DNA of 64,000 nt, taken from a virus. Lineage: Duplodnaviria; Heunggongvirae; Uroviricota; Caudoviricetes. Positions 8,999-59,925 of the stretch are shown here, one piece after another. The translations under genes were made by a program, and so were the position numbers. Numbering within the stretch: position 1 is the stretch's first letter; each line of letters begins with the position of its first letter. Where the stretch lies: positions 12,922-76,921 of the IMG/VR virus record IMGVR_UViG_3300028559_000023. One strand, given 5' to 3'. The notes beneath the pieces are model-generated. The model had not been told where the DNA came from. It made no database searches and was given only the letters and a program-made list of their open reading frames with translations.

Positions 8999-9561
8999 TT
9001 GAATTTTCTGAGGCTATTCAAGTTTTGCTGGCAGGGCGTTCCTCTGAAGCTTTCTATCTCGTCAAAATCGGCAATAGCTTCAGAACCAGTCATAGCAGCA
9101 ATGTAACTGTTGGTTCTGACACGTATATTGCTGACGGTTCCATTCTAGAAGTCACTCCGGCGGAATTCTCTTCCGTTACAGATAAACAAGAATTCAGTGT
9201 TGCAGTAGCGGACGTAGACAATTTCTTGTCTGACAAGATTACAGCGGGTATCATTGGTCTAAAGGTTGAAGCCCGAATAGGCTTTATAAATCCTGCCACA
9301 GGTGTTGCTTTCACAAGCTACGCTGATACGTTCTTCTTGTACCGGAGTGCTGTTGATAGGGTTGAATTACAAATCGCTACGGGTAGTAGAGGCAAACGCA
9401 ATTTCGTAATTGTTTGCACTAGTCCTCTACATGATCTTGACCAAATAAGGGCTGTTTACACAAGCCAAGACTACGCTAATAGTGTGTTGCCTGGCGACAC
9501 ATCTTATAGCCAAGTCTATCAAGGATCCGGTCAAATAAATCTAAAGTGGGGTAAACTATAA
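8995..9561 (+). CDS. minor tail protein (tip assembly, by position)
   Basis: 188 aa. ATGA overlap with the upstream gene and with the downstream fibre gene. Confidence 0.45.
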   Translation: MIEFSEAIQVLLAGRSSEAFYLVKIGNSFRTSHSSNVTVGSDTYIADGSILEVTPAEFSSVTDKQEFSVAVADVDNFLSDKITAGIIGLKVEARIGFINPATGVAFTSYADTFFLYRSAVDRVELQIATGSRGKRNFVIVCTSPLHDLDQIRAVYTSQDYANSVLPGDTSYSQVYQGSGQINLKWGKL

Positions 9562-12500: not shown

Positions 12501-15500
12501 GTTGCAACAAAAGGCTCGGCCACACTCACCCGACGTTTCAGTGTAAGCAAACTCAAGACAGCGGCTTCTTCATCCTACGCACTTATCACCGTATATGCTG
12601 AGCGTCCTGTACAACCTTTAGCACCTACTGGCGGTAAATACACAGCGGCCACTGATACCTTTGTGTCGCCTGACGGTTGGTCTAGAACGCTCCCTGCTCT
12701 GAGCTTTGCGCCTATCTGGGGATCTTCTTTTGCATTCGTGTCACCTGATGCTTCCGTTGAACTGGATGGCGGTCCTTGGTCTACCCCGGTGCTCATTGCA
12801 AGTCCCGTAGTGAACGGTCGACGCACTGCCGTACTACAACTATACAAGTGGTCGTCAACACCTCCGACTACTTACCCGGTAGGTACCTCTACTTACAACT
12901 GGCAAACAGGCTTATTTACAGACCCTTCCTTCAACTCAAACGGCTGGACCACCACGCCTGGAACGCCTTCTCCTGGCATGTCACTTTACGTGGTCAGGCA
13001 GATATACACCAACATCGATACGTCTACTGAGAGTGTGGTTACTTGGAGTGCGACAACTTATTCAGTTCTGTCTCAAAGCGGGCTGGATGGTAGCAATGCG
13101 ATAGCTCTTAAGTTAAACGTCAACGCAAATTTGTTTAAGTTTGACAAAGACGGGCTCGGCTCTCCGATATCCCAAACCTTAACCTTCAATACTGTACTGT
13201 CGAACATCTCTGGTACACCCACCCTTGTATGCACACGTTACAACGCGTCAGGAGGATCTCTTGGTACAGTCGCACTAGGTGGTTCCGGATTATCAAGAAC
13301 GTTGACAATAGCGCAATTCGGCACTGCAGCATATGCTGTTATCACCTCCACACTCAGCGGGTACAGTGATCAGATTACTGTTTACAGAAGCGCTGATGGA
13401 GCTACTGGTAGCGCAGCGGTCGTAGGCTATCTGACAAATGAGAGCCACACGGTTCCTGCCGACTCTGGCGGCGTTGTGTCTGCGGGTAATCTCGCTGCCG
13501 CAGCAGGTGCTTTTAAGGTATCCTTTGGTACCACTGATGTAACCAGCAGCAGCACTTTCTCTAAGTTCAGTCAATCTGGACTTGTGGGTAGTATTGACGC
13601 AGCGGGTAACTACACTATCAGCAGCATGTCCGCCGACACAGGTTATATGGTCCTCAGAGCCGTATATAATGGGGTTACGATTGAGAAGACTTTCAATGTC
13701 TCTAAGGCTCGTCAAGGCGCAGCGGGTGAATCAGCTACAGAAAACTTGTATGCGGTGCTGTCCAACGAGAACCACACATTCACGGCGTCTGCAGATGGTA
13801 CAGTAAGTAACTATGGTGGTAGCGGTACAACCATACGCGTGTTTGAGGGCGTTACTGAGCTTACATATGACGGTGTTGGTACTTCAAATGGTACTTACTT
13901 CATCGGTATGGCACCCTCGGGTGTCACGTTAGGTACGCTGTCGGCAAACGGCGATTCAGCGGACATGAGCGCGGTGTCTGCGTTCGTTGCTTCTTCTGGC
14001 TCAATCGTATACACGATTGTTGGTAAGCTTCTTGACGGTACTCCTTTTAACTTAACAAAACAACAAAATTTCTCGAAGGCTTTAGCTGGTGTTGGAGGTG
14101 CTGCAGGTTCTGCTTTCTGGTTGACAAGGTCAGCAGCTTCCATTAGGAAGTCTATTAGCGGCGTGTTGACGCCTAGCGCTCTGACATTCAACGCAATTCA
14201 GTCGAGTGGCTCAACACCGTCTCCTTACTCTGGTCGTTTCAGAATAAGTGTCGACACAGGCGCAGGGTATACTGAGAGCTACGCAAGCATTGTCAATGAG
14301 ACCACAACAAACTTCACGATACCCTCCAACTGTATAAGCCTAAAGGTCGAGTTATTCAGTGATGCTGCCTTTACAAATTTAGTTGATTACGAGATAACCC
14401 CAGTAGTGCTAGACGGGCCTAAGGGCGATTCAGGGATAAGCGCGATACTAAGCAACGAGAGTCATTCTGTGCCATCCGATGCGCAGGGGAATGTTCTGTC
14501 TTATGCTAACTCAGGTACACTGATTTATGTGTATGACGGATCTACTGCTCTTGATTTCGATCAGGCTGGCGCAAGCGCAGGGACCGCTGGTAAGTGGGGC
14601 TTCACGACGACTGTTTCAAACATAGGTTCACCAACCGTTTCAGACGTGGGTTTTCCGGCTTCTGTGGCCGATCTCTCAGGTATGACTTCGGACAGTGCGG
14701 CAATTACCTACAACATATTCGGAAAGAGCCTGGCGGGTAATTCGTTTGCACTCACAAAGACACAAAGTATAACAAAGTCGAAGCAGGGACCCCAAAGCTC
14801 CTCTTTCTGGGTGTCATCGTCAGCGGCTGTAATTCAGAAAAGTAACACATCTGTTTTGAATCCATCTAGCGTTAGATTCTCTGGCTTCAAGAGCACTCAG
14901 GGATTGCCTGAGACTTACGCGGCAAGATTCATAATCCAGACGTCTACAGACGGTACTAACTACACCACTCAGTACACTTCAGGGGCGGATGAGACCTTCA
15001 AAGACTATAGTATTTCCGCCAATGTCAAGTCAGTTAAGGTATCGATGTATGCGGCCGGCGGTGTGAGTACCTTGTTGGATAGTCAGACTGTGCCAGTTGT
15101 ACAAGATGGCGCAACAGGTCCCAATGGCTTAAGATACGGTGCAATGACAATGTACCGTTGGTTGCTTAATAAACCTACAACCTTTCCATCAGGAAATTCT
15201 ACCTATACGTGGGCCTCAGGCGTATTTACCGTTCCGTCAATAACTAACGGCTGGTCGATAACACCGCCTGCAGCTGTGCTTGGCAGTACTCTGTGGGCAA
15301 CTACAGTTACCTTTACTGACTCCGGCTCATCGGCTACTTCAGCCATCACCTGGGCCGTCACTGACTGCTTTGCAGTGTCGTACGCAGGTACCAACGGTTC
15401 CAACGGTACGAGTAGTGCCAGAATTGACATCTTCAGAAGGTCACCGACAGATAACCCGTCAGCTCCTAATGCAACGGCGTCTTATGACTTTGTTTCAGGT

Positions 15501-17690: not shown

Positions 17691-18157
17691 AAAGCTTTCT
17701 TAAAGTTAATGGTGTTTGGCGAGATCTCAACAAAGTACAGTTCAACAAAAATGGCACCTGGTATAAGCCTCGTAAATTGTGGATAAAGCTCGGCGGTGTC
17801 TGGACTCAGATGCTTGACGCTTTGGCCCCAACGTTCGCAAGAGTGGGCGACGACGGTTTCCTAGACAGCACTTCGATAGAATGGCGTTCCGACGGGTCAG
17901 TCGATGCGGGTGAGAATTCACCCTGGCTGAACTCTGTGGCTGCTGGTAATGGCAACGGTTTCTGGATACGTATTCCCTCGCATGTGGGAGTGTCGTGCAA
18001 CAGAGGGCCGCAGAACACGTGGTACCAGATGAGTTCTGCTTTGCGATTGTCAAGAGCTGCAGGTCAGTACTTCATCAACGGTACTTACCAGGTATCTAGC
18101 GATGGTGGCGCGACAATCCTAGGTTCTGGTACTTGGTATCTAGCCGGCGAACTATAA
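17687..18157 (+). CDS. hypothetical protein (tail-fibre-associated by position)
   Basis: ATGA overlap with the fibre gene stop. 156 aa, Trp/Gly-rich. Confidence 0.5.
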   Translation: MKSFLKVNGVWRDLNKVQFNKNGTWYKPRKLWIKLGGVWTQMLDALAPTFARVGDDGFLDSTSIEWRSDGSVDAGENSPWLNSVAAGNGNGFWIRIPSHVGVSCNRGPQNTWYQMSSALRLSRAAGQYFINGTYQVSSDGGATILGSGTWYLAGEL

Positions 18158-18289
18158 GACAAATCGACTATCTCAATCGAAAACGGCTCGCAGGTAGCCC
18201 TTCAGGAAGGCCCCGACTGGTAGGCAGGTTCATCGACCCTCACACGCATTTTGCGAGGGGATGCCTGCCCCATGGCGTGGGCGCCGGAG

Positions 18290-18322
18290 GCACCTCGGGC
18301 CGCTTTTCTTCGTTTATTTGTT
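18290..18322. repeat. 33-bp sequence GCACCTCGGGCCGCTTTTCTTCGTTTATTTGTT. Its exact reverse complement occurs at 43024-43056.
   Basis: Base-by-base comparison of 18290-18322 with the reverse complement of 43024-43056 gives a perfect 33/33 match, with mismatches immediately outside on both sides. Confidence 0.85.
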
Positions 18323-18359: not shown

Positions 18360-18380
18360 GAACCCGTTAACTTAACCCTT
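18360..18380 (+). promoter_or_regulatory. conserved 21-nt motif GAACCCGTTAACTTAACCCTT, a putative phage-RNAP promoter (copy 1 of 4)
   Basis: Near-identical copies at 28962-28982, 57816-57836 and 43168-43188. All are intergenic and each sits upstream of a gene block; this copy lies 75 nt upstream of the lysis cassette. Confidence 0.5.
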
Positions 18381-18454: not shown

Positions 18455-18985
18455 ATGTTACCTATCGTTGCAAGCCTTTTGTCGAACGGCCTGAGCCTCC
18501 TGGGCAACGCAGTTTTGGCTAAAGGGAAAGATTGGGTTGAAGCGAAAACCGGTGTGGATCTTACGAGGGAGTCTCTGAGTCAAGAGGATCTGACCAAGCT
18601 CCGTATTGCCGAGATGGAACACGAAGAAGAGCTTCTACGAATCAAACAGAATGACGACCGGATCAGTCTGGAGTTTGAGCGGATGAAGCTGGACAATGTA
18701 AAAGATGCCAGGTCTATGCAGGTCACGGCTCTGTCTCAGAATGACTGGCTGGCCAAGAACTTTGTGTATCTTTTCATTGCCATCTGGTCAGTGGCCGCGA
18801 TGGTGTTCATCGGCGCAATAACATTTGGCGATGTCCCTGAAAATAACCAGCGCTTTGCTGATACCATTCTAGGCTTTGTGCTAGCCACTGTCCTTGGTGG
18901 TATTTTCCAATACTTACTCGGGACTACGCCGCAGTCTAAGGCAAAAGACAGCACTATCCAGAATCTTGCGGAGAAAGCATTATGA
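18455..18985 (+). CDS. membrane protein, putative holin or lysis-associated membrane protein
   Basis: 176 aa. It has an N-terminal hydrophobic segment, a charged central region and two C-terminal transmembrane-like segments (NFVYLFIAIWSVAAMVFIGAITFG; LGFVLATVLGGIFQYLLG). The stop overlaps the next start as ATGA. Confidence 0.4.
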   Translation: MLPIVASLLSNGLSLLGNAVLAKGKDWVEAKTGVDLTRESLSQEDLTKLRIAEMEHEEELLRIKQNDDRISLEFERMKLDNVKDARSMQVTALSQNDWLAKNFVYLFIAIWSVAAMVFIGAITFGDVPENNQRFADTILGFVLATVLGGIFQYLLGTTPQSKAKDSTIQNLAEKAL

Positions 18986-21873: not shown

Positions 21874-22025
21874 TGCGTGAATTTCTTTTAGGGCTTGTGT
21901 GCTGTCTTGTTGCGTTCGCCATGGGGAGCTACATGGCAAGGACTAGAATAGAAAACGAGTGCAAAAACTTTGGGCTGTTCATAAGCGGCTCCAACAAATA
22001 CAGTTGCAAAACTGCGGAAAAATAG
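21873..22025 (+). CDS. small secreted/membrane peptide (50 aa) with an N-terminal signal-like segment
   Basis: ATG overlaps the upstream TGA. Product begins MREFLLGLVCCLVAFAMGSY... Not in the track. Confidence 0.35.
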   Translation: MREFLLGLVCCLVAFAMGSYMARTRIENECKNFGLFISGSNKYSCKTAEK

Positions 22026-22090
22026 CCATCCTATATGAAGAGCTCGAAAGAGTTACTTCTTAACCTACCAACCATCGAAGGAAACCTATC

Positions 22091-22489
22091 ATGCGTGAAA
22101 TTGCCATTTTTGCCGCGATCTGCCTGATCGCTTTGTTCTGCGCCGTTCTGTCGGTGTTCGGCCTCACCGTCGCCGCTTCTGCAGTCGCTGTTGCAGTTGC
22201 CGTTTCGGTGTTTGCTGGCGTGTTCGGTCAAGCTGTCAATCTCCTGTCTGTCGGCCTGTTGGCGATTTGGCGTGAGATTCTGTGGTTTCTGGAGCTGATG
22301 GGCGCACCCATTTTCTTCGGAATCTTGTTGCAGAAAATTGCAGTTGCCTACTTTGGTTACGGTGCCTTCGGTATCGCTTTCCTCAGCGGCTTCGGCTTGT
22401 TTCTGTTCAACGCAGCTGTCTACATTGTCATCTTCTGGGTGACCATGCGTCTCGTTCGTGAAGTTCAAATCATCGCAGCCAACGCCTAA
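22091..22489 (+). CDS. integral membrane protein (about 4 transmembrane segments)
   Basis: 132 aa, strongly hydrophobic throughout. A conserved leader AACCTACCAACCA lies 17 nt upstream of the ATG. Confidence 0.6.
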   Translation: MREIAIFAAICLIALFCAVLSVFGLTVAASAVAVAVAVSVFAGVFGQAVNLLSVGLLAIWREILWFLELMGAPIFFGILLQKIAVAYFGYGAFGIAFLSGFGLFLFNAAVYIVIFWVTMRLVREVQIIAANA

Positions 22490-22498
22490 GGAGGCAAT

Positions 22499-22720
22499 AT
22501 GCTCGCAATCATCTGGGTTACCATCGCTGCACTGTTGGCGATTGCTGCGCTCATAGTGGGCGCTTTTGAGAAAAACAAACTTCGGTTCCAAACCGAGTTC
22601 GCTGAAGAGCTTCGCAAAATGGAGGCTTGGGAAAAGGCCGGCGGTGTCTGGCTCACACTGCAAGAGAAGCACGCCGACGGGTGGCGCACTCAAGCTGTCT
22701 TGCAGGGGAGGCTGTCATGA
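22499..22720 (+). CDS. small membrane protein (1 transmembrane segment)
   Basis: RBS AAGGAGG upstream. N-terminal transmembrane segment IIWVTIAALLAIAALIVGAF. Confidence 0.55.
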   Translation: MLAIIWVTIAALLAIAALIVGAFEKNKLRFQTEFAEELRKMEAWEKAGGVWLTLQEKHADGWRTQAVLQGRLS

Positions 22721-23022
22721 GAAACCTCAGCAACATGCTTCGCTCAGCCAACAGCTTGCTTCGGCGGGCAAACGAAGCGTTAACCGAAGAGATTCGGAAA
22801 GCGCGCGACGAACACAAGAACAACAAAGAAGTTCTGAAGCTCATCGACGTCATCTGTATGCGACATCGACAGCATACGCTTCGCGAGACCACAGAGGCAA
22901 CACTTCGCAACCTGGTGAAAGAAGATCTCGACAACATCGTGGATCTTGTTGAGCTGGTGCTTCTGTGTACGACAACGCAGGCGCGGATGTTTGAGCTTGT
23001 GGCGCGCAACAAGGGCCGATAA
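22717..23022 (+). CDS. hypothetical protein
   Basis: ATGA overlap with the upstream gene; this is the in-frame later start of track ORF 22627. Its last 10 nt, including the stop codon, lie inside tRNA-Met. Confidence 0.45.
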   Translation: MRNLSNMLRSANSLLRRANEALTEEIRKARDEHKNNKEVLKLIDVICMRHRQHTLRETTEATLRNLVKEDLDNIVDLVELVLLCTTTQARMFELVARNKGR

Positions 23023-23089
23023 CTCAATAGGTTAGAGTAGCCGACTCATAATCGGTTAGTTACAGGTTCGAGTCCTGTTCGGCCCACCA
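23013..23089 (+). tRNA. tRNA-Met (anticodon CAT; elongator type or Ile2), CCA encoded
   Basis: Cloverleaf folded by hand. Acceptor GGGCCGA/TCGGCCC. D-stem ACTC/GAGT with GG in the loop. Anticodon loop CTCATAA. T-arm ACAGG-TTCGAGT-CCTGT. Discriminator A followed by CCA. Confidence 0.8.
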
Positions 23090-23312
23090 GTGTTCAGGTT
23101 AAGTGCACTACCTGCTGAAAAGGTGCAACGAAGCTTTAGCCTACCACGGGCTACTGCGGGTAAATAGTGGAGTGCTTGAGGTCATCCCTCTTACTCAAGC
23201 ATAAGGACAACAGAGGAACCCATCTGAAATATGGTGGGACCACTTAAGTGCCTTTAGCAGGGTATTTAAGTGGTCTTCTCAACAACCTACCAACCAACAC
23301 GAGGTAAACGAA

Positions 23313-23543
23313 ATGAAGTTCACACGCCATGCAGTTAAGGAAATCGATCAGCCGCGCTACATGTTGGCCGGTGAGAATGGACATGCAATGTGGGTTCTGG
23401 TACCCCTCAACGCGAGTTTGTTCAACACTGAGCAGGACGCTTTGAACGCCATTGAGATGTACCGGCGGATTGACTCACGCAGCTTCCAAGGCCGCAGCAT
23501 CGAAGTCGTCAAGCTCGAAATCGAAGTGAAGGTGATCGAATGA
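23313..23543 (+). CDS. hypothetical protein
   Basis: 76 aa. RBS GAGG upstream. The same AACCTACCAACCA leader lies 17 nt upstream of the ATG. Confidence 0.55.
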   Translation: MKFTRHAVKEIDQPRYMLAGENGHAMWVLVPLNASLFNTEQDALNAIEMYRRIDSRSFQGRSIEVVKLEIEVKVIE

Positions 23544-23767
23544 TCCAGTACTACGACTTCGCAATCCAGTTCACGGAAAGCACCTTCCTTGGCCTCGACA
23601 GTGGTTACAATCCGATTGAAGTTGACAGCATCAAGCACGCTTGTCGATTCGAGCGTTTTGAGTTGGCTGACAACTATCTCAAAAGCTGGCCGAAGGATCG
23701 TTTTCCAGCCTCTACAAGCATCGTGCGTGTGTACAACACCTCAGAGATCGTGAAACAGCGCGGTTGA
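23540..23767 (+). CDS. hypothetical protein
   Basis: ATGA overlap with the upstream gene. 75 aa. The 3' end overlaps the start of tRNA-Leu. Confidence 0.5.
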   Translation: MIQYYDFAIQFTESTFLGLDSGYNPIEVDSIKHACRFERFELADNYLKSWPKDRFPASTSIVRVYNTSEIVKQRG

Positions 23768-23842
23768 CGGAACCGGTAGACGTAGCGGGCTTAAAACCCG
23801 CAGCCGAAAGGCGTATGGGTTCGATTCCCATACCGCGCACCA
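23758..23842 (+). tRNA. tRNA-Leu (anticodon TAA), class II with long variable arm, CCA encoded
   Basis: Acceptor GCGCGGT/ACCGCGC. Anticodon stem GCGGG/CCCGC with loop CTTAAAA. Variable arm AGCCGAAAGGCGT. T-arm ATGGG-TTCGATT-CCCAT. Ends A + CCA. Confidence 0.75.
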
Positions 23843-23855
23843 CACAAGGACGACC

Positions 23856-23975
23856 ATGAAAACATTCTTGATGTTGATTCTGCTGGCGAGCCTCACAGCT
23901 TGCGGTGGAGGCGACCCTGAAGACGACGGCATGAAGACAATTCAGCCGATCACCTGTTCCAAGTGCACAACCTAG
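23856..23975 (+). CDS. small lipoprotein (39 aa; lipobox LTAC)
   Basis: Product MKTFLMLILLASLTACGGGDPEDDGMKTIQPITCSKCTT. RBS AAGGA 8 nt upstream. Classic signal peptidase II lipobox. Not in the track (under 60 aa). Confidence 0.5.
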   Translation: MKTFLMLILLASLTACGGGDPEDDGMKTIQPITCSKCTT

Positions 23976-23984
23976 GAGCCATCC

Positions 23985-24170
23985 ATGTGCGTACATCAGA
24001 AAGAAGTCAAAGGCGCGGTCGATCTGGCCGCTGAGAACCAAGCGCTGCGATCACAATCAGGCGCGCGGATGCGTGACATTGCAGCCGCTCGAAGCTCCCG
24101 TAGGCGTGCAGGGCTGCCTCGAAACAAGATGACGCATTCCGAACTCTGCCGTCGCGTCAACGGCAACTAA
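23985..24170 (+). CDS. hypothetical protein
   Basis: RBS AGGAG 6 nt upstream. 61 aa, Arg-rich. Confidence 0.45.
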   Translation: MCVHQKEVKGAVDLAAENQALRSQSGARMRDIAAARSSRRRAGLPRNKMTHSELCRRVNGN

Positions 24171-24219
24171 ACGTATCGGTGCTTACGATAAAGCACCACA
24201 TGCTCAACAAGGAGAAATC

Positions 24220-24504
24220 ATGAGCGCTCGCAAGCAAGTGGAAGTCAATTTCGGTCAGTTCTTGAGCGACCTGTCCGGCGAACAACAAGGCGTCAGCGCG
24301 GAAGTGCTGAAGGAGCTCCACAAGGAGTTCATCGACCGCAAGAAGGTCGAAGTCAAGCGCAGGCTCGAGAACATCTACGAACGCATGCAGCAGCACGTTG
24401 CCAGCCTGCGGCAAGTTCGTCGTCAGGAGAAGGCCATCCAGGTTGCCATGAAGGAACTGCAGGATGAGGCCAACAACGTTGTGAAGGGTCTCAGCACCGA
24501 CTGA
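24220..24504 (+). CDS. hypothetical coiled-coil protein
   Basis: RBS AAGGAG upstream. 94 aa, K/E/R-rich and helical. Confidence 0.55.
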   Translation: MSARKQVEVNFGQFLSDLSGEQQGVSAEVLKELHKEFIDRKKVEVKRRLENIYERMQQHVASLRQVRRQEKAIQVAMKELQDEANNVVKGLSTD

Positions 24505-25756: not shown

Positions 25757-28009
25757 ATGTCAGTAAAACTAACTAAATCGATAATTGTAGCATCCATAAC
25801 TAATCGACTTGCCAACGAAATAGCACCACAGAACCCTGTGTCTTTTTTACTAAAGCACACTGTGGATGACTACTACTCAGAACTCATAAGTACGCTGTAC
25901 CTGTACACAAGGCCCAAAAAGGGTGCCAAGTCGCAGAACATTTACTTCTCAGAGCTTATATCAGCTTTAGGCCACACAATACGCTCCAAACTAGGCCATC
26001 GTAAAGACTCGGCTGTTGCTGCAAAAACCGGAGCGTTTCTGTTGTATACGTTCCAGACCTTGGGCGTTCTAGAGTTGGTGGTCGTTGCAGGAAAATCACA
26101 TGCAACTTATGCAATAGTTGTTAAAGATGAAGAAGCAATTGCTGCAATATGGAGCACACTGTCTTTTGAAAAGGTTAGAAAGCTCCCCACACTTTCAAAG
26201 CCTTCAGATTGGGTCGGTACTAGACATCCTTCCGGTGTCATGATCGTGAAGACAGGTAGCTCAGAGGTGCTCAAGTCCTTGAGCCCTTCCAATCAGCCAA
26301 TGGTGTTTGAGTCTCTCAACAGATCACAACGTATCGGTTGGAATGTAAATAGCGAGTTGCTCACTGTTGCAGCCTGGGCCTTGAAGAATCGTACTGACGC
26401 TTTTGCGGATATCTGGGAGCAGGTCAACCCAGAAGCCAGGGCCACAAAAGTCAGAGAAGCAAAAGCTATCACTGACATGGGCAAACGGCTACTCAACAAA
26501 ACTTTTTACCATGTCTATTACTACGACTTTCGTGGTCGTAAGTACCCATCATCAGCCTATCTACACGAGCAAGGTTCTGACTTATCAAAAGGCCTATTGT
26601 TGCGAGCCGAAAGGAAACCGATAGGTGCAAGAGGCTATTGGTGGTTAATGGTCACTATCGCGTCGGAGTGGGCGGGTGATGCAGATAGATCTGACGGTCT
26701 TAAGACTGACAAGATACCTCTACAAAACCGATTTGAGTGGGCTGAGCGTCATGAAGATCTTTTGCTGTCTTATGCTGAAGCGCCGAAGATAAACACTGGA
26801 TGGATGTCTGCAGAAAATCCATGGAGATTCCTGGCTGGCTGTATTGAGCTTAAAAATCTACGAGTGTGGCAGTTCAACAACAACGATTTCAACAGCTACG
26901 GCTATCAATCTGGGTACTTGGGTTTCATAGACGGATCCAACAATGGTTGCCAACACCTTGCTGCTCTTACGCGAGACGAGGTTACGGCCGTACATGTGAA
27001 CCTTGTCAAACAGGAATACCCCGGTGATTTGTATCGTTATGTGGCTTCAAGCGTGTGGGAGAGCGTCAACGCTGAAGTGTCAAGGCTGCCAGCTGATGTA
27101 GTTGCACGCGCAGACGCTTTTATTGATGACCTGATGACTCTTAAACGCGAGATATCGGCGAAAGAATTCTCTGACGAGACAAGAGCGCCACTGGTAAACG
27201 CTCTGTTAGCGCTTAAGAACTCCAATCCTGATATCGATGTTATTACACCACAAGTCTTCTGGCGTCGCGTAGATAGCGCCAAAGAGAGGCGCAAGATTGT
27301 CAAACGAAACGTGATGACACTACCGTACGGAGGTACGCCATACGGTCTTGGAGAGCAGCAGATAAGTGACGCAAAGAAACATGGCATTGCGCTTCTGCTT
27401 CATATGCAACATCGATGGGCTGCTTTTATGGGGCGTCGTGTGTACGAAGACTGCAAGGTTTCTCTTAAGCGCCCTATGCAGCTTCTTAGCCTGTTTGAAG
27501 ACGCAGGCAGAAAGGCCGAGGAAGAAGGTCGCTTTCTTAGCTGGGTGGTCCCTATAACAAAGTTTCCCGTAGTTCAGAATTACACATCTGGAAAGATAAA
27601 GAAGATCTATGTGCAGTACGGTCCTCCAGTCGGTGCCAGAAAGAGTACTGGTTACTATGAGAACACACTGCAGATAAATATTTGTTTTATCGAAGATGTC
27701 GAGCCAACTAAGGGTAAACAAATTCAAGGCGCCAGTCCTAATGCAATCCACTCTCTAGACGCTGCTCATGTTGCCATAACCGTGTGCAATACTGACGCAG
27801 ATATCACTACTATCCACGACAGCTTTGGCGCTCTCCTTTCAGATATGGATGAGCTTTTTGTGTCTGTTAGAAAGTCATTTGTACAACTCTACAATGTAAA
27901 CCCTCTTAAGCAACTATTTGATGACATCGGCGCTGACATGTCAAATGTTTCATTTGGAAACTTGGACGTCTCAGCTATACTTGAATCTGAATACGCATTT
28001 AGCCCATGA
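25757..28009 (+). CDS. single-subunit DNA-directed RNA polymerase (T7-like), compact 750-aa form
   Basis: Carries ...IDGSNNGCQHLAALTRD... (compare T7 DGSCSGIQHFSAMLRD), ...HSLDAAHV... and ...IHDSFGALL... (T7 HDSFGT). Confidence 0.85.
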   Translation: MSVKLTKSIIVASITNRLANEIAPQNPVSFLLKHTVDDYYSELISTLYLYTRPKKGAKSQNIYFSELISALGHTIRSKLGHRKDSAVAAKTGAFLLYTFQTLGVLELVVVAGKSHATYAIVVKDEEAIAAIWSTLSFEKVRKLPTLSKPSDWVGTRHPSGVMIVKTGSSEVLKSLSPSNQPMVFESLNRSQRIGWNVNSELLTVAAWALKNRTDAFADIWEQVNPEARATKVREAKAITDMGKRLLNKTFYHVYYYDFRGRKYPSSAYLHEQGSDLSKGLLLRAERKPIGARGYWWLMVTIASEWAGDADRSDGLKTDKIPLQNRFEWAERHEDLLLSYAEAPKINTGWMSAENPWRFLAGCIELKNLRVWQFNNNDFNSYGYQSGYLGFIDGSNNGCQHLAALTRDEVTAVHVNLVKQEYPGDLYRYVASSVWESVNAEVSRLPADVVARADAFIDDLMTLKREISAKEFSDETRAPLVNALLALKNSNPDIDVITPQVFWRRVDSAKERRKIVKRNVMTLPYGGTPYGLGEQQISDAKKHGIALLLHMQHRWAAFMGRRVYEDCKVSLKRPMQLLSLFEDAGRKAEEEGRFLSWVVPITKFPVVQNYTSGKIKKIYVQYGPPVGARKSTGYYENTLQINICFIEDVEPTKGKQIQGASPNAIHSLDAAHVAITVCNTDADITTIHDSFGALLSDMDELFVSVRKSFVQLYNVNPLKQLFDDIGADMSNVSFGNLDVSAILESEYAFSP

Positions 28010-28961: not shown

Positions 28962-28982
28962 GAACCCGTTATCTTAACCCTC
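28962..28982 (+). promoter_or_regulatory. conserved motif GAACCCGTTATCTTAACCCTC, a putative phage-RNAP promoter (copy 2)
   Basis: 19/21 identity to the copy at 18360. Intergenic, 26 nt upstream of the SSB-like gene that opens the replication block. Confidence 0.5.
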
Positions 28983-29007: not shown

Positions 29008-29523
29008 ATGGCGATCTTAAAGGACTGCGAAGTCTACTACCTCAAAGCAAACCCCAGTCGTCCCAATCGAAAGTATGACAAGGAAAATCCCACTTGGGAA
29101 GTTCAGCTGCGTACCCGCGATAAGGTCAAAAAGGCTGAATGGCGCGCCCTCGGCTTGCCAATGAAAGACGTTATCCCGGAAGACGGTTCGCCTGCATACA
29201 CGCGGGTAAGTCTTCGCAAACGAATCATCAAGAAGGACAAGACGGCCGCGTCGCCTGTTGAAGTCATCAACGCAAGTCGTGAGCCAATTGATCCTGACAC
29301 TGTCGGTAACGGCTCTATTGCCAACATCCGTCTTTATCAGTACGAATATCCTAAGAAGGGCGGCGGAATGGCTGTCGCTTTTGTCTTGATGGGTATTCAG
29401 GTCAAGAAACTCATTAAGTACGAAGCTCGTGTACGTGATGACGACTTCGATGATGAAGGTGAGACTGAGGTCGTTGAACCTGAAGCAGCAGGCGCTCCTG
29501 AAGAGGATCCTGAGAAGTATTGA
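29008..29523 (+). CDS. putative single-stranded DNA-binding protein (acidic C-terminal tail)
   Basis: 171 aa. Basic N-terminal two-thirds, then the acidic tail DDDFDDEGETEVVEPEAAGAPEEDPEKY, as in T7 gp2.5-type SSBs. First gene after the promoter motif. Confidence 0.35.
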   Translation: MAILKDCEVYYLKANPSRPNRKYDKENPTWEVQLRTRDKVKKAEWRALGLPMKDVIPEDGSPAYTRVSLRKRIIKKDKTAASPVEVINASREPIDPDTVGNGSIANIRLYQYEYPKKGGGMAVAFVLMGIQVKKLIKYEARVRDDDFDDEGETEVVEPEAAGAPEEDPEKY

Positions 29524-33179: not shown

Positions 33180-34005
33180 CGGCGATATCATCTGCTACCA
33201 GTGCACTTACAACATTTGGCAAAACAGGCTGCAGGATGCCGGTATAAAGCCAGACTCTAAAGGCATTTACAAGGTTACGTTAGACGCCGACGGGAACAAG
33301 TTCATACCGCCGATGACTCGCGAACAAGAGACTAAGTATCTAAAAACTTGTTGGGAAATCTTCAAGAAGAAGCTTAACGATCTACTTGAAGTAACCTACT
33401 GCGACGAGTTTGTCATGGCAGTCAAGGGAGGCTCTTCCTTCCGAGACCACATGTTTGATACGTATAAAGGCAACCGGGAGCAGACTGAAGAAGTTCGGAA
33501 TGCGTTTGTGCCGACAATAAGGCAACTGGCAGTTCATGAGCTAGATGCCATACCTTGTGTAGGATACGAGGCTGACGATCTTTTGCGTATATGGCGAAGA
33601 CAAGCCAACGAGGCTGGCCAAGATAATGTACTGTGCACTATCGACAAAGATCTGAAGTGTGAGCCAGGTCTCTACTTCAACATGCATAAGATGCACTGGA
33701 GGATGGAGACTATTAGCGAGCACGATGCACTTTACAACTACTACTACCAGCTAATCCTTGGTGACGGTACAGACAACGTACCTGGCATCCAAGGTGTGGG
33801 TAAGGTAGGTGCAAAACGCATACTATCCGGAGCCCTGACCGATAACGATTTTCAAGAAGCTGTTGTCGGGGCGTACATCGCAAGATACCAGGATAGCTGG
33901 TTCTCAAGTCTGCTTGCCAATGGGCGAATGATTCATTTATGGCGTTACCCTCACGACTATTTCAATCCTCGCGAGTGGGCTGTTGTTAGGGAGTTACTGG
34001 AATGA
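33160..34005 (+). CDS. 5'-3' exonuclease / flap endonuclease (FEN family)
   Basis: Motifs DGDIICY, GYEADD, CTIDKDL and the H3TH motif LILGDGTDNVPGIQGVGKVGAKR. Confidence 0.8.
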   Translation: MTIAIIDGDIICYQCTYNIWQNRLQDAGIKPDSKGIYKVTLDADGNKFIPPMTREQETKYLKTCWEIFKKKLNDLLEVTYCDEFVMAVKGGSSFRDHMFDTYKGNREQTEEVRNAFVPTIRQLAVHELDAIPCVGYEADDLLRIWRRQANEAGQDNVLCTIDKDLKCEPGLYFNMHKMHWRMETISEHDALYNYYYQLILGDGTDNVPGIQGVGKVGAKRILSGALTDNDFQEAVVGAYIARYQDSWFSSLLANGRMIHLWRYPHDYFNPREWAVVRELLE

Positions 34006-34487
34006 GCGTTTATACGGGTACTGTCCCCACAGTGAAGAGAGAGATTGTCGCCTCCAACGATAATGGACAGTGGGAATTTGGTAGCAAGATGGGCGTAGGT
34101 TTGGGGTTTGTGTATCTGGTGTATGACACCGTATTGCACCGCTTCTACATCGGTAGGAAGAACTATCAATCGCGGAGTAAAGGACGATTGGTTGAAAGTG
34201 ATTGGCGAAACTACCGCTCGTCTTCAAAGATCTTGGCTAGTCTATTGGAAAACAGGCCGCACGAAGAGTTTCGATGGATCTGTTTGGATCAGTATTTCAC
34301 AGCATCTGGGCTGGCTTATGCAGAAACTTGGTCGCTATGCTACGTCGAAGCACCGACTAAGAAGTACGTGTACAACAAGCGTATAGAGGCCATCACCTGG
34401 AACGTCAAAGAACCTGTATCTTTGCTTCACATGGCTACTCTAAACAAGTATAACGACATGGCAATCGAGTTTAACAAGACTGCTTAA
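34002..34487 (+). CDS. GIY-YIG endonuclease (homing-endonuclease-like)
   Basis: Motif GFVYLVYDTVLHRFYIGRKN matches GIY-x(10)-YIG. 161 aa. Inserted between the exonuclease and primase genes. Confidence 0.6.
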   Translation: MSVYTGTVPTVKREIVASNDNGQWEFGSKMGVGLGFVYLVYDTVLHRFYIGRKNYQSRSKGRLVESDWRNYRSSSKILASLLENRPHEEFRWICLDQYFTASGLAYAETWSLCYVEAPTKKYVYNKRIEAITWNVKEPVSLLHMATLNKYNDMAIEFNKTA

Positions 34488-39675: not shown

Positions 39676-40677
39676 ATGAACGGTTTCAAAGCATCTACTA
39701 TTCGTAAGTTACTTAAGAAGAAGATTGACGAAGTATGCGAAAGCATTACGGACCCCGATATCAAGACTATCTTCAAGCGAGACGCAATTGTAAGCGGTGG
39801 TGCAATTGCTTCTTTTCTCCAAGGCGATCAACCTAACGACTACGACATTTACTTCAGCAATATTGAAACGACTGAGCGAGTTGCTAAATACTACGTTGAT
39901 AAGTTCAACGAGGCTGTTGGAAAGCTTACAACGGCTCCTGGTGTCAAGGAGTATGCTCCTACAGTCCGTCGTGAAAAACGTGTCAACATCAAGGGCATTG
40001 AAGAGGACCGTGTTGTCATCTTTATGAAGTCCGCTGGTGTTGCTGGCGAGAGCCAAGATGTCTACGACTATTTCGAGGGTCGTGCAGACGAAATCACAGA
40101 CGACTTTGTGGCCAGTCTTACAGAAGGCGCCACTGTCATGGGTAATACACCAGATGTGTTCCAAGCTGTGTCTGCGATCAAGGAAGAGCTCCGCGAATCA
40201 AAAGAGAAACTTCCATATCGACCTATCTTCCTGTCTGATAACGCTATTACGTTAGCTAACCGAGTTCAGCTGGTAATTCGTTTCTATGGGTCGCCTGCAG
40301 AGATTCACGTAAACTACGACTATGCGCATGCCATGTGCTTCTATAAGGCTGGCGAAGATGAGCTTTGCCTTCCGTCAGAAGCGCTACAAGCAATCTTGAG
40401 CAAAACACTGATCTATAAGGGCTCCTTGTATCCTGTCGCTTCCATCTTTCGTGTTCGAAAGTTCTTGAAGCGTGGTTGGAATATCAGTGCAGGTGAGCTG
40501 CTCAAGATCATGTTTCAGCTTAGTAAGATCGATCTGAGCAACCACGCAGTGTTGCGTGATCAACTGATCGGAGTTGATGCAGCATACATGAATCAGCTTG
40601 TTAACCTTATCAAGGCAAACGATGGTAAGGTTGATCAGGCGTATCTTGTTAAAATCATTGATGAGGTGTTTGAATGA
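39676..40677 (+). CDS. nucleotidyltransferase of the Pol-beta superfamily; its head motif resembles CCA-adding / poly(A) polymerase enzymes
   Basis: IVSGGAIASFLQGDQPNDYDIYF fits G[GS]-x(9-13)-DhDh. Compare the CCA-enzyme head motif VGGAVRDLLLGrppkDiDi. 333 aa. Confidence 0.45.
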   Translation: MNGFKASTIRKLLKKKIDEVCESITDPDIKTIFKRDAIVSGGAIASFLQGDQPNDYDIYFSNIETTERVAKYYVDKFNEAVGKLTTAPGVKEYAPTVRREKRVNIKGIEEDRVVIFMKSAGVAGESQDVYDYFEGRADEITDDFVASLTEGATVMGNTPDVFQAVSAIKEELRESKEKLPYRPIFLSDNAITLANRVQLVIRFYGSPAEIHVNYDYAHAMCFYKAGEDELCLPSEALQAILSKTLIYKGSLYPVASIFRVRKFLKRGWNISAGELLKIMFQLSKIDLSNHAVLRDQLIGVDAAYMNQLVNLIKANDGKVDQAYLVKIIDEVFE

Positions 40678-42004: not shown

Positions 42005-42862
42005 GTGTACGCAATCTACCATTCGAACTGTCCAGACGGCTTCACGGCCTTCATGGTGCTGTATAAGCATGTTGGCGGTAATGTCAAAGGCATCCCAGCT
42101 GGCTACTCCAAACTGCCTGATGTGTCAGATATTGCGCCAGAAAGTTTGGTCTACATACTTGACTATTCGGTCAAGAGAGCTACATTAGAGGCTTTGTTGT
42201 TGAAGAGCTGCAATGTGATTCTCCTGGACCACCACGAAAGCACCTTTAGAGAGCTCAAGGACTATCCAGCACATAAGTCTTTCTACAACTTCAGTGATCA
42301 GGCGTTTTCTGGAGCTATGCTCACTTGGCGTTTCTTGAACGGGCCTGAGGTTGCTGCGCCTTTGTTGGTGGAGTACGTTCAAGACTACGACCTATGGAAG
42401 TTCCAGCGGCCGTGGTCAGAGCAAATCAACGCGGCAATTCAATCGTACGATTTCACGGTGCAGAGTTATGAGGATCTGTGGAGCGGCATTGAAACCTCAA
42501 ATGGTTACGACAAATTGCTGCTAGAAGGTACGGCAATCGAGCGAAAGCTTAACAAGCTGTCCAGCACAATCATCGCATCGACGAAGCGGTGGATCGTTAT
42601 TGGTGGACATCGTGTACCAATCGCTAACGCCCCTTACGAGTTGGCCAGCAAGACAGCCACAAACCTCTCAAAGTTACACAAGGATGAGGCGCCATTTGCA
42701 GCCACGTACTTTGATAACAGTGAGGGACGACGAGTGTTCAATCTGCGAACCATCAACGATGATATCAAAGTGAATGAAGTTGCTGAATTCTTTGGGGGTG
42801 GTGGCCACCCCAAGGCGTCAGCTTTTAGTGTCGGTAACGATTCTTATTTGAGGAGCATCTGA
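42005..42862 (+). CDS. DHH/DHHA1-family phosphoesterase (NrnA / small RecJ-like)
   Basis: GTG start. DHH motif in VILLDHHEST. DHHA1 motif FFGGGGHPKA near the C-terminus. 285 aa. Confidence 0.65.
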   Translation: MYAIYHSNCPDGFTAFMVLYKHVGGNVKGIPAGYSKLPDVSDIAPESLVYILDYSVKRATLEALLLKSCNVILLDHHESTFRELKDYPAHKSFYNFSDQAFSGAMLTWRFLNGPEVAAPLLVEYVQDYDLWKFQRPWSEQINAAIQSYDFTVQSYEDLWSGIETSNGYDKLLLEGTAIERKLNKLSSTIIASTKRWIVIGGHRVPIANAPYELASKTATNLSKLHKDEAPFAATYFDNSEGRRVFNLRTINDDIKVNEVAEFFGGGGHPKASAFSVGNDSYLRSI

Positions 42863-43032
42863 TGAACGAAACCCAACTGTCGCGCCAACTTCTGGATGAA
42901 ATTTCCAAAAACTTTAAAGAGGAGATTGCCAAGAAGCCTAGCTGGGGCTCAAAGCAACTTGAGAACCTTTACGATCAAGTTGTAAGTAAAGTGCTTATGG
43001 ATAAGTTGTTCAATTCGCAAGTAAACAAATAA
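42862..43032 (+). CDS. small hypothetical protein (56 aa)
   Basis: ATG overlaps the upstream TGA, with GAGGAG upstream. Not in the track. The last 9 nt overlap the 33-bp inverted-repeat copy at 43024-43056. Confidence 0.4.
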   Translation: MNETQLSRQLLDEISKNFKEEIAKKPSWGSKQLENLYDQVVSKVLMDKLFNSQVNK

Positions 43033-43056
43033 ACGAAGAAAAGCGGCCCGAGGTGC
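43024..43056. repeat. 33-bp sequence AACAAATAAACGAAGAAAAGCGGCCCGAGGTGC, the perfect reverse complement of 18290-18322
   Basis: Exact 33/33 complementarity checked base by base. Sits at the left edge of the GC-rich island. Confidence 0.85.
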
Positions 43057-43167
43057 GTCGCGTTTGCCCGGATGACTACCCCCATGGGTTTCGCCGTGCG
43101 CTGCACCCGCGCCGAACCTGGTATGTAGCCGTGGCTGTTTTTAGGCCGGCAGTCACGGTCAGAGGGG

Positions 43168-43188
43168 GAAGCCGTTGGCTTAACCCTT
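43168..43188 (+). promoter_or_regulatory. promoter-like motif GAAGCCGTTGGCTTAACCCTT (copy 4, 18/21 identity to the copy at 18360), immediately followed by the inverted repeat CCTTATC-N6-GATAAGG
   Basis: Lies 44 nt upstream of the island gene. The 7-bp inverted repeat spans 43185-43204. Confidence 0.4.
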
Positions 43189-43231
43189 ATCTCCGATGAT
43201 AAGGCCAAATCTCACTAAACCAAGGATTTCC

Positions 43232-43852
43232 ATGTCTATTTCTGCTGACTCTTTTGTTACCAAGATCATTGTCAAGGGCCCGGACGGTAAAGAACATCAG
43301 TTCGATACCAAGCAGGAGGCTGTTGACTTTCTGCGTCGCCCCAAGATTGAAGAAGCTCTGAAGGCTGTCACTGCCAACAACGCCGAGCTGACCAAGTGGC
43401 TGATGGAGAACCAAGAAGGCGTCGAAATGGCCTTCGAGATTGGCACTGTTCGTCGTGTCACCAAGCAAGAGCACAAGAAGATGGGTCTGGCTCTGGACTT
43501 CATTGCTGAACAAATGAAGGACCAAAAGGCTGCTGCGTTCGCAGTTGACAACATCGCCGCTATCAAGGATTCGTTCCGTTGGCCGTCGGTGAAGCGTCTG
43601 AAGCCCGAAGAGAAGACTGAAGCTGCTCGTCGCTCGCTCATGGCTCTTTCGAATAACAACGAGTCGCTGTCGGCTTGGGTTATCGAAAACCAAGAGAAGG
43701 TTATGGAAGCTTTTGAAGCTGGCAAGGTCAAGCGCGAAGTGCACCCGGCCGCTTCGGAAGCCCTGGCTGCCTGGCGTGCCAACAAGGCGGCTGCTAAGGC
43801 TGCTGAAGCGGGTGCGGCTCCCGCTGCTGAAGGCGGTGCTCCCTCTGCTTAA
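43232..43852 (+). CDS. hypothetical protein with two tandem ~50-aa repeats and an Ala/Lys-rich C-terminal tail; the gene of the GC-rich island
   Basis: ATG at 43232 with AAGGA 6 nt upstream; the track's start at 43196 has no RBS. Internal repeat consensus ...ALxxNNxEL(T/S)xW(L/V)(M/I)ENQExVxxAFExGxVxR... The tail reads ...ANKAAAKAAEAGAAPAAEGGAPSA. Codon usage is distinct (CTG/AAG/GCT/CGT-rich). A strong terminator follows. Confidence 0.6.
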   Translation: MSISADSFVTKIIVKGPDGKEHQFDTKQEAVDFLRRPKIEEALKAVTANNAELTKWLMENQEGVEMAFEIGTVRRVTKQEHKKMGLALDFIAEQMKDQKAAAFAVDNIAAIKDSFRWPSVKRLKPEEKTEAARRSLMALSNNNESLSAWVIENQEKVMEAFEAGKVKREVHPAASEALAAWRANKAAAKAAEAGAAPAAEGGAPSA

Positions 43853-43914
43853 AGACTAGGCCATTACCGGAATGGATGTCACCTAGTCGTAATTGAAAAA
43901 CCCTCGCGTTTTTC

Positions 43915-43954
43915 GGCCCCACTCACGTTAACGCGTGTAAGTGGGGCTTTTTTT
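43915..43954 (+). terminator. intrinsic terminator (GGCCCCACTCACG...CGTGTAAGTGGGGC hairpin plus T7)
   Basis: Long GC stem, then TTTTTTT at 43948-43954. Confidence 0.7.
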
Positions 43955-44116
43955 AAGGAACTCCTTTGCGATTCAAGACGGTAATTAATGTATCAGCCAG
44001 TACTACCATAGGTGCTATCTGTTACACTTACTTCTTCCCAATATCAGTGCCTGTCTACGTGATTTTTTCGGCAGGTTACCTGATGCTTCTACTCGCCTAT
44101 ATTCACGAAAAGTTAT

Positions 44117-57815: not shown

Positions 57816-57836
57816 GAACCCGTTAAATTAACGATA
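57816..57836 (+). promoter_or_regulatory. conserved motif GAACCCGTTAAATTAACGATA, a putative phage-RNAP promoter (copy 3)
   Basis: The first 17 nt match the copies at 18360 and 28962. Intergenic, upstream of the AT-rich region and the terminase genes. Confidence 0.45.
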
Positions 57837-58091: not shown

Positions 58092-58574
58092 ATGAACGTG
58101 GATTTAGACTACATCGTGGACGATAAACAGCCTAGTGGTCGTGGAGAACGTGGTGTTTCTACATACGTTCGTGGTGCTCAGAGATCTGTGTCCCGGTTAA
58201 AACAACTACGTTTTGACCCCATTGAGAAGCTCGTCGGTCAATACACTAGACTGGAAGAAGAGATTACTCACTACAAACAGATTCGTGCTGGCACTAGGAT
58301 CGAACTGCTAGGTAATGGTAAGCCGAGAACCTTTAGTTATGAGGTTCTTATGAAAATGGAAGAACAACTTCAAGGTATAGCTAAGGAGCTCTTGAGGTAT
58401 GGGTATGGTCGTGTCCCTGAAAACGAGGATCCGAATGCTCACAAACAGAAGTCCGGAGGTCTTGTGGTTAAGTTACATAAACAGGGTGATGTGTACACTG
58501 CAGGCGGCCCTACTGAAGACGACCCGGATGACTTTGAAGAATCTGGATTTGGGTACATAGAAAATGGACAATGA
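58092..58574 (+). CDS. terS: terminase small subunit (by position)
   Basis: ATG at 58092 with GAGGTG upstream; the track starts at a GTG at 58089. 160 aa, charged. Overlaps the large terminase start. Confidence 0.5.
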   Translation: MNVDLDYIVDDKQPSGRGERGVSTYVRGAQRSVSRLKQLRFDPIEKLVGQYTRLEEEITHYKQIRAGTRIELLGNGKPRTFSYEVLMKMEEQLQGIAKELLRYGYGRVPENEDPNAHKQKSGGLVVKLHKQGDVYTAGGPTEDDPDDFEESGFGYIENGQ

Positions 58575-59925
58575 AGTGTCTTTGCACTGGGGTCAATCCC
58601 AGGTATACGAAGATTTAATCGTTAATCAAACATGCCGCTACCCTGTCGTGGATTGCTCTCGTGGATGGGGTAAGTCGTATCTAGCCGCGACTATCGGCTC
58701 TACAGCTGTATACGAGTTACTCGATCTGCCTTTTTGGGTTCCTAACAAAATTGTGTGGATCATAGCCCCAACATATGATCAAGTAACAGACATTTACTAC
58801 CCGTTGTTAGCCTATGACATGGGTCTTGAAGCCGAAGCTCTTAAATCATCGCGCGATTTAGGCAGATTTTGGTTTCGTAACAATGTGGAGCTTAGACTGC
58901 TGTCATACGAAGCCGTTGAACGTATGCGTGGTAAAGGTGCATACCTAGTTATCTGGGATGAGGTGTCCTCATGCAAGAAGGGTATCAAGCCTAAAGACGC
59001 TTGGAACTCGGTTATCAAACCGTGTATCGTCACTCGATGGTCCAAGCGACACGCCAAACGTTACGGTGCAAGACGCCCTGGAAGTGCACTTTTCATAAGC
59101 ACTCCTAAGGGCTACAACTTCTTTTACGACCTTTTCAACTACCAAGAAACGGATAAGGAATGGAAGTCTTACATGTTCGATCACACTACGAGTCCCTTGC
59201 TGGACCCTGAGGAAATCGAGCGTAATAGAGCCATTATGGATCCCATTGAGTTTGCGTCGGAGTATCTGGCCTCCTTCAAAGACTCTGGTAATAGCGTTTT
59301 CTACTGTTTCGATAGATCTGTGCATCTACGAGACGACTTGCCTTATTTTCTACCACCCTACGGAGACCAGCTCGGCGAAGATGTGCACTTGAATATTGAC
59401 TTTAACGTCGGATTACAGTGTACTTCGGCCTTCGCTTTGAGAGGTCATCAGATGCACTTTTTGGATGAATTCAAAGGGCATCCCGATACAGAAACTTTGG
59501 CTCAAGTCCTTAAGGAGACATACAAGGGGCATCGAATATTTGCATACCCCGATCCTTCTGGAAGAGCACGTAAGACATCAGCACCTGTTGGTCGTACTGA
59601 CTTCTCCATCTTAGAGTCCTACGGTATCCAATGCCTTGCCAGACCTAAAGCACCGCCTATTGTTGATAGTGTACAGGCGGTTAATCGGCGCTTGAAGTCT
59701 GCTGTAGGTGGTGTGCAGATGTTCTTCTCTAAAACAAGAGTACCTGGCGTAGTGAGATCCATGGAGCGTACCAAATGGGCAGACACTAATTTAGATGTCG
59801 CCGTGATCGATAAGTCCGAGGGTGTAGAACATTTCTCAGACGGTATTAGATATGGTACCGAGTGGCACTTCCCTGTTGAGCAAGGTACTAAAGTGGTAGG
59901 CAGAAATGTAAATGGCAGATTCTGA
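58564..59925 (+). CDS. terL: terminase large subunit
   Basis: Walker A variant VVDCSRGWGKSYLAA. Walker B AYLVIWDEVS. ATPase motif C ISTPKG. Nuclease-domain motifs AYPDPSGRA and DGIRYG. Confidence 0.85.
   Translation: MDNEVSLHWGQSQVYEDLIVNQTCRYPVVDCSRGWGKSYLAATIGSTAVYELLDLPFWVPNKIVWIIAPTYDQVTDIYYPLLAYDMGLEAEALKSSRDLGRFWFRNNVELRLLSYEAVERMRGKGAYLVIWDEVSSCKKGIKPKDAWNSVIKPCIVTRWSKRHAKRYGARRPGSALFISTPKGYNFFYDLFNYQETDKEWKSYMFDHTTSPLLDPEEIERNRAIMDPIEFASEYLASFKDSGNSVFYCFDRSVHLRDDLPYFLPPYGDQLGEDVHLNIDFNVGLQCTSAFALRGHQMHFLDEFKGHPDTETLAQVLKETYKGHRIFAYPDPSGRARKTSAPVGRTDFSILESYGIQCLARPKAPPIVDSVQAVNRRLKSAVGGVQMFFSKTRVPGVVRSMERTKWADTNLDVAVIDKSEGVEHFSDGIRYGTEWHFPVEQGTKVVGRNVNGRF

Follow-up and report, generated by a model that had tools for sequence, protein, structure and literature searches.

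The window analyzed here is a 64,000-nucleotide (nt) stretch of the IMG/VR virus record IMGVR_UViG_3300028559_000023 (positions 12,922 to 76,921 of that record), which belongs to a tailed phage (Caudoviricetes), and all positions given below refer to this window. All genes of the window are on the + strand. The locus under study consists of a gene for a 206-amino-acid (aa) protein, a promoter-like motif and an inverted repeat in front of it, a strong intrinsic terminator behind it and a conserved GC-rich non-coding element upstream of the motif. A preliminary description had interpreted the whole as one GC-rich, moron-like island whose product might be a nucleoid-associated or a DNA-mimic protein. 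We come to a different reading and consider it likely, with a probability of roughly 0.8, that the locus is a conserved single-gene high-output cassette of an uncultured ~60-97 kb phage lineage.

Probable promoter, leader and terminator of the 206-aa gene

The coding sequence (CDS) of the 206-aa protein is located at 43232-43852, with an AAGGA ribosome-binding site 7 nt upstream, and the position of the start is backed by the N-termini of the homologues. The promoter-like motif reported in the preliminary description is present at 43168-43187 as a 20-nt motif (GAAGCCGTTGGCTTAACCCT), which matches the copy at 18360-18379, an exact copy of the consensus, in 17 of 20 positions. Two further copies were found at 28962-28981, 26 nt upstream of the gene for a gp2.5-like single-stranded DNA-binding protein (SSB), and at 57816-57835 upstream of the terminase and the structural module. 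All four copies in the window are on the + strand and intergenic, with 0 expected by chance.

The window also encodes a T7-like single-subunit RNA polymerase (25757-28009; 750 aa; Pfam PF00940, E = 3e-59). In nearly all related loci the sequence CCGTTAAnTTAACCCT is located 20-215 nt upstream of the homologue of the 206-aa gene, at locus GC contents of 31-66%, and EBPR siphovirus 1, the sole database phage with a homologue, carries CCGTTAAnTTAACCCT upstream of that homologue as well. Furthermore, related contigs carry CCGTTAAnTTAACCCT on the + strand on both sides of the RNA polymerase gene. Because the window encodes such a polymerase and the motif precedes the homologues, we assume that the motif is most likely the promoter of the phage's own single-subunit RNA polymerase. 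This is in line with the properties of promoters of the T7 group, as the motif has a length of ~20 nt, occurs in several copies, is strand-specific and intergenic and stands at the heads of operons. Only the AATTAACCCT part of CCGTTAAnTTAACCCT coincides with the T3 promoter, namely with its upstream half. The analysis thereby defines a probable promoter for a widespread, uncultured Naomviridae-like phage lineage that encodes an RNA polymerase.

The inverted repeat with the GATAAG core was confirmed at 43185-43204 and consists of CCTTATC (43185-43191), the loop TCCGAT and GATAAGG (43198-43204), so that its first arm overlaps the 3' end of the motif. The first 48 nt counted from the promoter 3' end fold with a free energy (dG) of -8.5 (z = -2.7). 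At the other end of the gene, the long GC-rich hairpin with a run of seven T that had been described was found as an intrinsic terminator at 43916-43954 (dG -20.1 kcal/mol). It is composed of a bulged, GC-rich 14-bp hairpin (43916-43947) followed by TTTTTTT (43948-43954), and it is one of only two + strand sites of -20 kcal/mol or stronger in the 64 kb. The fold of the 3' untranslated region has a z-score of -4.2, and in 27 out of 49 homologous loci a hairpin (dG <= -8) with four or more U behind it is located within 160 nt downstream of the gene. Promoter motif, leader hairpin, gene and terminator are thus all present, and the claim of a self-contained unit holds.

It is conceivable that these parts work together in the following way. 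The phage RNA polymerase would start transcription at the motif, and the 44-nt leader with its stem-loop, the good ribosome-binding site and the codon-optimised open reading frame (ORF) would provide strong translation signals. The short mRNA would probably be stabilised by hairpins at its 5' and 3' ends, transcription would end at the strong terminator, and the 206-aa protein would be among the most abundant products of the phage, as is the case for the phi10-gene 10-Tphi unit of T7. This comparison draws on the established knowledge of T7 and covers a phage-encoded T7-like RNA polymerase, a short conserved promoter directly upstream, a stem-loop leader, a strong ribosome-binding site, heavy codon bias and a terminator made of a hairpin and a U-run. 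In contrast to T7, the product is no capsid protein and its gene is located outside the structural module, the promoter CCGTTAAnTTAACCCT is lineage-specific, and the phage combines siphovirus-type tail genes with a genome of ~77 kb. In kind, the cassette would be an ordinary one, a phage-polymerase high-expression unit with an uncharacterised, lineage-restricted protein.

Conservation and synteny of the cassette

A close relative (L315) with 81% DNA identity across the 206-aa gene allowed us to compare the single parts of the locus. The promoter motif is identical in all 20 positions (100%), both arms of the inverted repeat are identical with a loop that differs in sequence and length, and the terminator is conserved to 90%. 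Within the CDS the identity of the first, second and third codon positions is 89, 90 and 65%, a pattern of substitutions that corresponds to purifying selection. Identity drops to 53% in the downstream spacer and to 42% at third codon positions in the neighbouring DHH gene. Promoter, leader with its stem-loop arms, ribosome-binding site, CDS and terminator are therefore conserved, in contrast to the diverged spacers and third codon positions around them.

The homologue occupies the same slot in dozens of related viral contigs of 60-97 kb. In the long contigs the gene order is ligase, Gad2-like gene, a few small ORFs, a gap of 200-400 nt, the homologue and a second gap, and this slot is held in L002, L007, L009, L011, L315 and about 80 IMG/VR loci. 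When contigs longer than 60 kb were recovered via their RNA polymerase, seven out of ten also carried the 206-aa gene. The 206-aa gene is a core gene of this uncultured phage lineage.

Composition and codon usage

The GC-rich stretch noted between 43033 and 43231 was confirmed by measurement, as its GC content is 58.3% compared to 47.5% for the window, which places it in the top 0.5% of all 199-nt windows. The CDS itself has a GC content of 54.4% (top 1%). A codon usage unlike that of the neighbours was confirmed, too: the effective number of codons (Nc) of the 206-aa gene is 36.8, compared to 47-65 for most other genes with at least 100 codons, and the preferred codons are GCT, CGT, CTG, AAG and AAC. 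The only other genes with low values are located at 22091-22489 (Nc 35.6) and 22681-23022 (Nc 44.8). Both properties recur in the homologues, whose GC content exceeds that of the locus in nearly every case across genome GC contents of 31-66%, and whose Nc is the lowest among its neighbours in 33 out of 56 loci (median 38.4 versus 45.4).

One single island, as the preliminary description had it, is not what these values reflect. The GC-rich part at 43033-43167 belongs to a separate conserved non-coding element that stands apart from the promoter of the gene. The apparent island has two unrelated causes, namely this 123-nt element on the one hand and the codon bias due to translational selection together with an Ala-rich protein on the other hand.

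The same composition had been taken as a sign of a moron, that is, a recently acquired foreign and possibly host-derived insertion whose GC content and codon usage still reflect the donor. An autonomous promoter-gene-terminator unit with a composition apart from its neighbours is indeed what the locus shares with morons in the sense of Hendrix and Juhala. However, the unit is core and syntenic, it holds its slot in dozens of diverged relatives with no insertion polymorphism, its promoter is the lineage's own motif and thus of the phage's own class, and the substitutions relative to L315 point to purifying selection. In addition, the raised GC content and codon bias in loci of 31-66% GC follow the gene and not a donor. 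The preliminary description had also proposed to look for the cassette in hosts; a pattern-seeded scan of 185,579 bacterial and archaeal species genomes, with one genome for each species, revealed no relative. Consequently, the moron reading is largely refuted and we consider it highly improbable. Since GC content and codon bias recur in the homologues and no bacterial or archaeal relative was found, the unusual composition comes from selection for expression on a core, phage-only gene and not from a foreign origin. More generally, odd GC content and codon usage in an island that has a promoter and a terminator of its own can mark a core gene under strong selection for expression instead of acquired cargo. 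A conserved structural component of related phages would have spoken against a moron; of this, the conservation in related phages was found for the 206-aa gene.

The second gene with extreme codon bias, 22091-22489 (third-position GC content 0.63), has no PHROG match. It is located within another GC-rich stretch (22000-24400) near the genes for tRNA-Met (23013) and tRNA-Leu (23758).

A neutral, internally duplicated protein

The 206-aa protein starts with an N-terminal beta-hairpin followed by about ten helices with an internal duplication, and it ends in an Ala/Glu/Lys-rich tail of low complexity. The duplication is real, since residues 41-74 align to residues 134-167 with a score of 85 compared to 26.7 +/- 5.2 for shuffled sequences (z = 11). 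The two units are ~93 residues apart and not adjacent, so that the description as two tandem repeats of ~50 aa applies only in part. In the alignment of the homologues the invariant residues cluster in the motifs RRP (RRPK), TIRRVTK, SFRWPSVKR and GxxKRE.

Neither of the two characters that had been ascribed to the protein agrees with its charge. The whole protein has an isoelectric point (pI) of 6.9 and a net charge of 0 (31 acidic and 31 basic residues). The Ala-rich tail (residues 176-206) has a net charge of 0 as well, and the tails of the homologues are variable with a mixture of A, E and K. The label of a histone-H1-like tail is therefore not apt, and a protein of the histone H1 or AlgP type was rejected because the Lys-rich, strongly basic tail is absent. 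An acidic DNA mimic of the Ocr, ArdA or Ugi type would need a strong acidity (pI below ~5); because of the pI of 6.9 and the net charge of 0 such a role is unlikely. A gp2.5-like SSB was also considered for the 206-aa protein, for which no PHROG SSB match was obtained; phrog_112 matches the gene at 29008-29523 instead.

Database searches describe a small family. We collected 151 metagenomic homologues with about 46-87% identity and lengths of 183-241 aa, none of which contains a Pfam domain, and a full search of 1.84 billion representative proteins with a hidden Markov model yielded only 174 clusters, mostly full-length (~200 aa). For the 206-aa protein no significant match to a fold or family and no match to solved structures was obtained. 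The protein is neutral, alpha-helical and internally duplicated, and it is an orphan that belongs to a small family restricted to phages. As probably one of the most abundant proteins of the lineage, it is a good target for expression and biochemistry.

One cluster of homologues carries the JGI name COG3141 (YebG). YebG (PF07130 / COG3141) is an SOS-induced 'dsDNA-binding' protein of enterobacteria. A search with PF07130 gave no hit for the protein of the window, and two out of 48 family members were matched at E = 0.05. With hhalign, residues 8-75 are collinear with residues 3-79 of YebG at a non-significant probability of 13.7% (E = 0.002), a value obtained with a shallow profile made of E. 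coli YebG and an alignment of 11 sequences from close enterobacterial relatives only. The aligned features of this non-significant match are a beta-hairpin, a helix start of the type F-x-[ST]-K-x-E-A and the motif WL-x-E-x-x-x-V...G. Unlike YebG, the phage protein is twice as long and additionally contains a second repeat of helices and a tail rich in Ala. The profile search resulted in a ~200-aa family and not in a large ~96-aa family, with hits that are unannotated and were not specifically checked for YebG.

Possible roles of the 206-aa protein

The most likely role is that of an abundant factor without enzymatic activity that associates with nucleic acid or with the replication nucleoprotein, and we suggest it only tentatively. 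It is based on the motifs rich in Arg, Lys and aromatic residues, on the N-terminal beta-hairpin and helix with their weak resemblance to YebG and on the position of the gene at the end of the replication module. Taken as a whole, the cassette together with this role is the best explanation of the locus, to which we give slightly better than even odds.

Four points weigh against it. Promoter use, start site and protein abundance are all inferred, and a net charge of 0 is atypical of a DNA-coating protein. Families of anti-defence proteins in the neighbourhood (Gad2-like in the window and Tad3 in L007) would fit a different role. Furthermore, the leader hairpin that includes the terminal CCC of the promoter is weakly enriched family-wide (46% versus 32% expected, p = 0.04). 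As this hairpin is about equally common at other promoters of the same class, it represents a trend of these promoters in general rather than a specific operator.

As a possible but rather unlikely alternative to the nucleic acid-associated role, the protein could take part in virion assembly or structure, for example as a scaffolding or a decoration/cement protein encoded away from the head genes. A copy number at the level of the capsid would explain the strong promoter, the terminator and the codon bias, as the expression signals have the strength of those of a capsid gene, and the genes soc and hoc of T4 are encoded away from the head genes as well. The all-helical structure with a variable Ala/Glu/Lys-rich tail resembles many scaffolding proteins, and a BFVD 'scaffolding protein' is among the non-significant matches. 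Scaffolds are typically acidic, however, whereas the 206-aa protein is neutral; known scaffold and decoration proteins gave no match in fold, and the gene follows the replication genes at a distance of 14 kb from the terminase and head module.

The neighbourhood suggests yet another role, an anti-defence sponge or decoy that would be made in bulk and capture an immune signal or effector of the host. A Gad2-like gene (39676-40677; PF26128) is conserved a few genes upstream, and a gene for a DHH/DHHA1 phosphoesterase (42005-42862) adjoins the cassette. In the relative L007 a Tad3-family gene (7214-7705) is located immediately upstream and an Acb3-family gene (16290-16573) downstream. Sponges need a high copy number. 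Typical anti-defence cargo is variable, in contrast to this near-universal, syntenic gene, and the protein has no fold match to any solved structure, so that we regard the sponge as doubtful and as somewhat less probable than a virion protein.

A conserved GC-rich element in two inverted copies

Upstream of the promoter motif a GC-rich non-coding element of ~123 nt is located at 43023-43145 (+ strand), in the following called copy B. A nhmmer profile detects it in the window with E = 4.8e-17 and matches the same position in about 30 related loci with E-values as low as 2e-18. Over ~125 nt the alignment has almost no gaps, the length is nearly invariant, and the element is GC-rich even in genomes of 33-36% GC. 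Its conserved blocks are AAATAA...AAAG-GGCC-NN-AGGTGC, a CCATG box and a small hairpin with a T-run near the 3' end; the 5' block reads AAATAAACGAAGAAAAGCGGCCCGAGGTGC in copy B. The identity to L315 is 81% for the element and 89% for its 5' block, compared to 42-65% for third codon positions and 53% for the downstream spacer. Because this is well above the identity of synonymous sites, the element is, judged by this comparison, under purifying selection. Coding of a small ORF was rejected, as no reading frame is consistently open across the relatives. The pattern AAAGNGGCCNNAGGTGC proved too unspecific for the viral collection, with most of its 117 matches due to chance.

We also considered whether the 5' block, which reads CACTTTAAAGGGG in many relatives, represents a T3/T7-like promoter core. 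We discarded this idea, since the copies of the window read ACGAAGAAAAGCGG and the block occurs only together with the element.

A second copy (copy A) was found at 18202-18322 in inverted orientation on the - strand (nhmmer E = 9.2e-10, with this copy absent from the profile build). It sits 38 nt upstream of the promoter copy at 18360. Positions 18287-18322 and 43024-43059 form a 36-nt inverted repeat with 35 out of 36 matching positions, of which 33 nt are exact. The two copies are 24.7 kb apart, bracket the RNA polymerase gene and the replication module, and each of them abuts a promoter motif. The layout of copy A recurs weakly in L306/L036, and a search for the second copy in other genomes via its flanking genes (18455-18985 and 17687-18157) mostly ended at unrelated phages or without any match.

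Is this element a functional RNA? It could act at the RNA level, either as a small non-coding RNA or as a processing or termination structure that ends the upstream operon. This is consistent with the high GC content even in GC-poor genomes, with the nearly invariant length and with the maintenance of a 4-bp hairpin followed by a T-run near the 3' end, the only hairpin detected in an all-pairs column scan. Furthermore, the element folds slightly better than shuffled sequences, and only in the + orientation (mean z = -0.70, p = 0.0016, versus -0.28). However, RNAalifold predicted no consensus helices on MAFFT, subgroup or hmmalign alignments on either strand, and neither helices nor covariation became visible even in a gapless alignment of 25 sequences. 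A search of Rfam with 43023-43231 gave nothing at the gathering thresholds and only chance-level matches with E > 3. In addition, the second copy is inverted even though all genes are on the + strand, and therefore it would need its own leftward promoter or act as DNA. A role as RNA is thus possible but appears to be the less probable case, at about one chance in four.

The element and the adjacent duplicated protein might also constitute a new phage nucleoprotein system, for example with origin or genome-organising sites that are bound by the protein, or the element might represent a new class of phage non-coding RNA; we regard this as quite improbable. The analysis has in any case exposed a conserved non-coding element in two inverted copies for which the present RNA and protein libraries offer no explanation.

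Two further observations concern the repeated copies. In L315 (3780-3900) the variable part of copy B (GGTGCCTCCGGCGCC) matches copy A of the window (18270-18300) and not copy B of the window, which suggests gene conversion between the two inverted copies. The contig behind L003 begins at the first base of the 36-nt repeat, and a break at a repeat of such length is a likely cause.

Genome context

Besides the RNA polymerase, the window encodes a family A DNA polymerase, a 5'-3' exonuclease, a primase-helicase, a class II ribonucleotide reductase (RNR), a ligase, the Gad2-like protein and four tRNAs. The large terminase is located at 58564-59925. The tail genes (381-17690) include those for a Neck1 neck protein, a 2571-aa tape measure, a distal tail protein and a 2709-aa protein. 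At the DNA level the phage has no match among phage records, while contigs of ~76.9 kb from several metagenomes are further assemblies of it.

In its RNA polymerase the phage is closest to two isolates, the Naomviridae roseophages DSS3_VP1 and DSS3_PM1 (32% identity), podophages with dU-DNA and genomes of 70-75 kb. The phage of the window shares with them the order of RNA polymerase, DNA polymerase, exonuclease, primase-helicase, RNR and small ORFs on one strand. In contrast to these podophages it has tape-measure and distal-tail genes. A homologue of the 206-aa protein was not found among the ORFs in the 40-75 kb part of the DSS3_VP1 genome (best hmmsearch E = 0.23). The siphovirus-type tail genes are thus combined with a T7-like RNA polymerase and a replication module ordered as in Naomviridae. 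A gene for a SegE-type GIY-YIG homing endonuclease (34002-34487) is located between the genes for the 5'-3' exonuclease and the primase-helicase.

The ends of the related contigs are distributed asymmetrically: 30 out of 80 viral contigs stop within 4 kb downstream of the 206-aa gene, and two out of 80 within 4 kb upstream. Several related contigs begin just upstream of the RNA polymerase gene, and one 24.6-kb contig (L211/L031) runs exactly from the homologue of the gene at 18455 to the homologue of the 206-aa gene. The clustering of contig ends points to a genome terminus or a hypervariable region downstream of the 206-aa gene.

The second + strand hairpin with a T-run of comparable strength to the terminator (690-729, dG -21.8) is located right where the tape-measure ORF is annotated to start (688), which may point to an attenuator or to a mis-called start of this ORF. 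Finally, a run of the 9-nt repeat GGNCCNCAR at 16491-16565 inside the 2709-aa ORF would encode collagen-like Gly-X-Y repeats, which suggests that this protein is a tail fibre.

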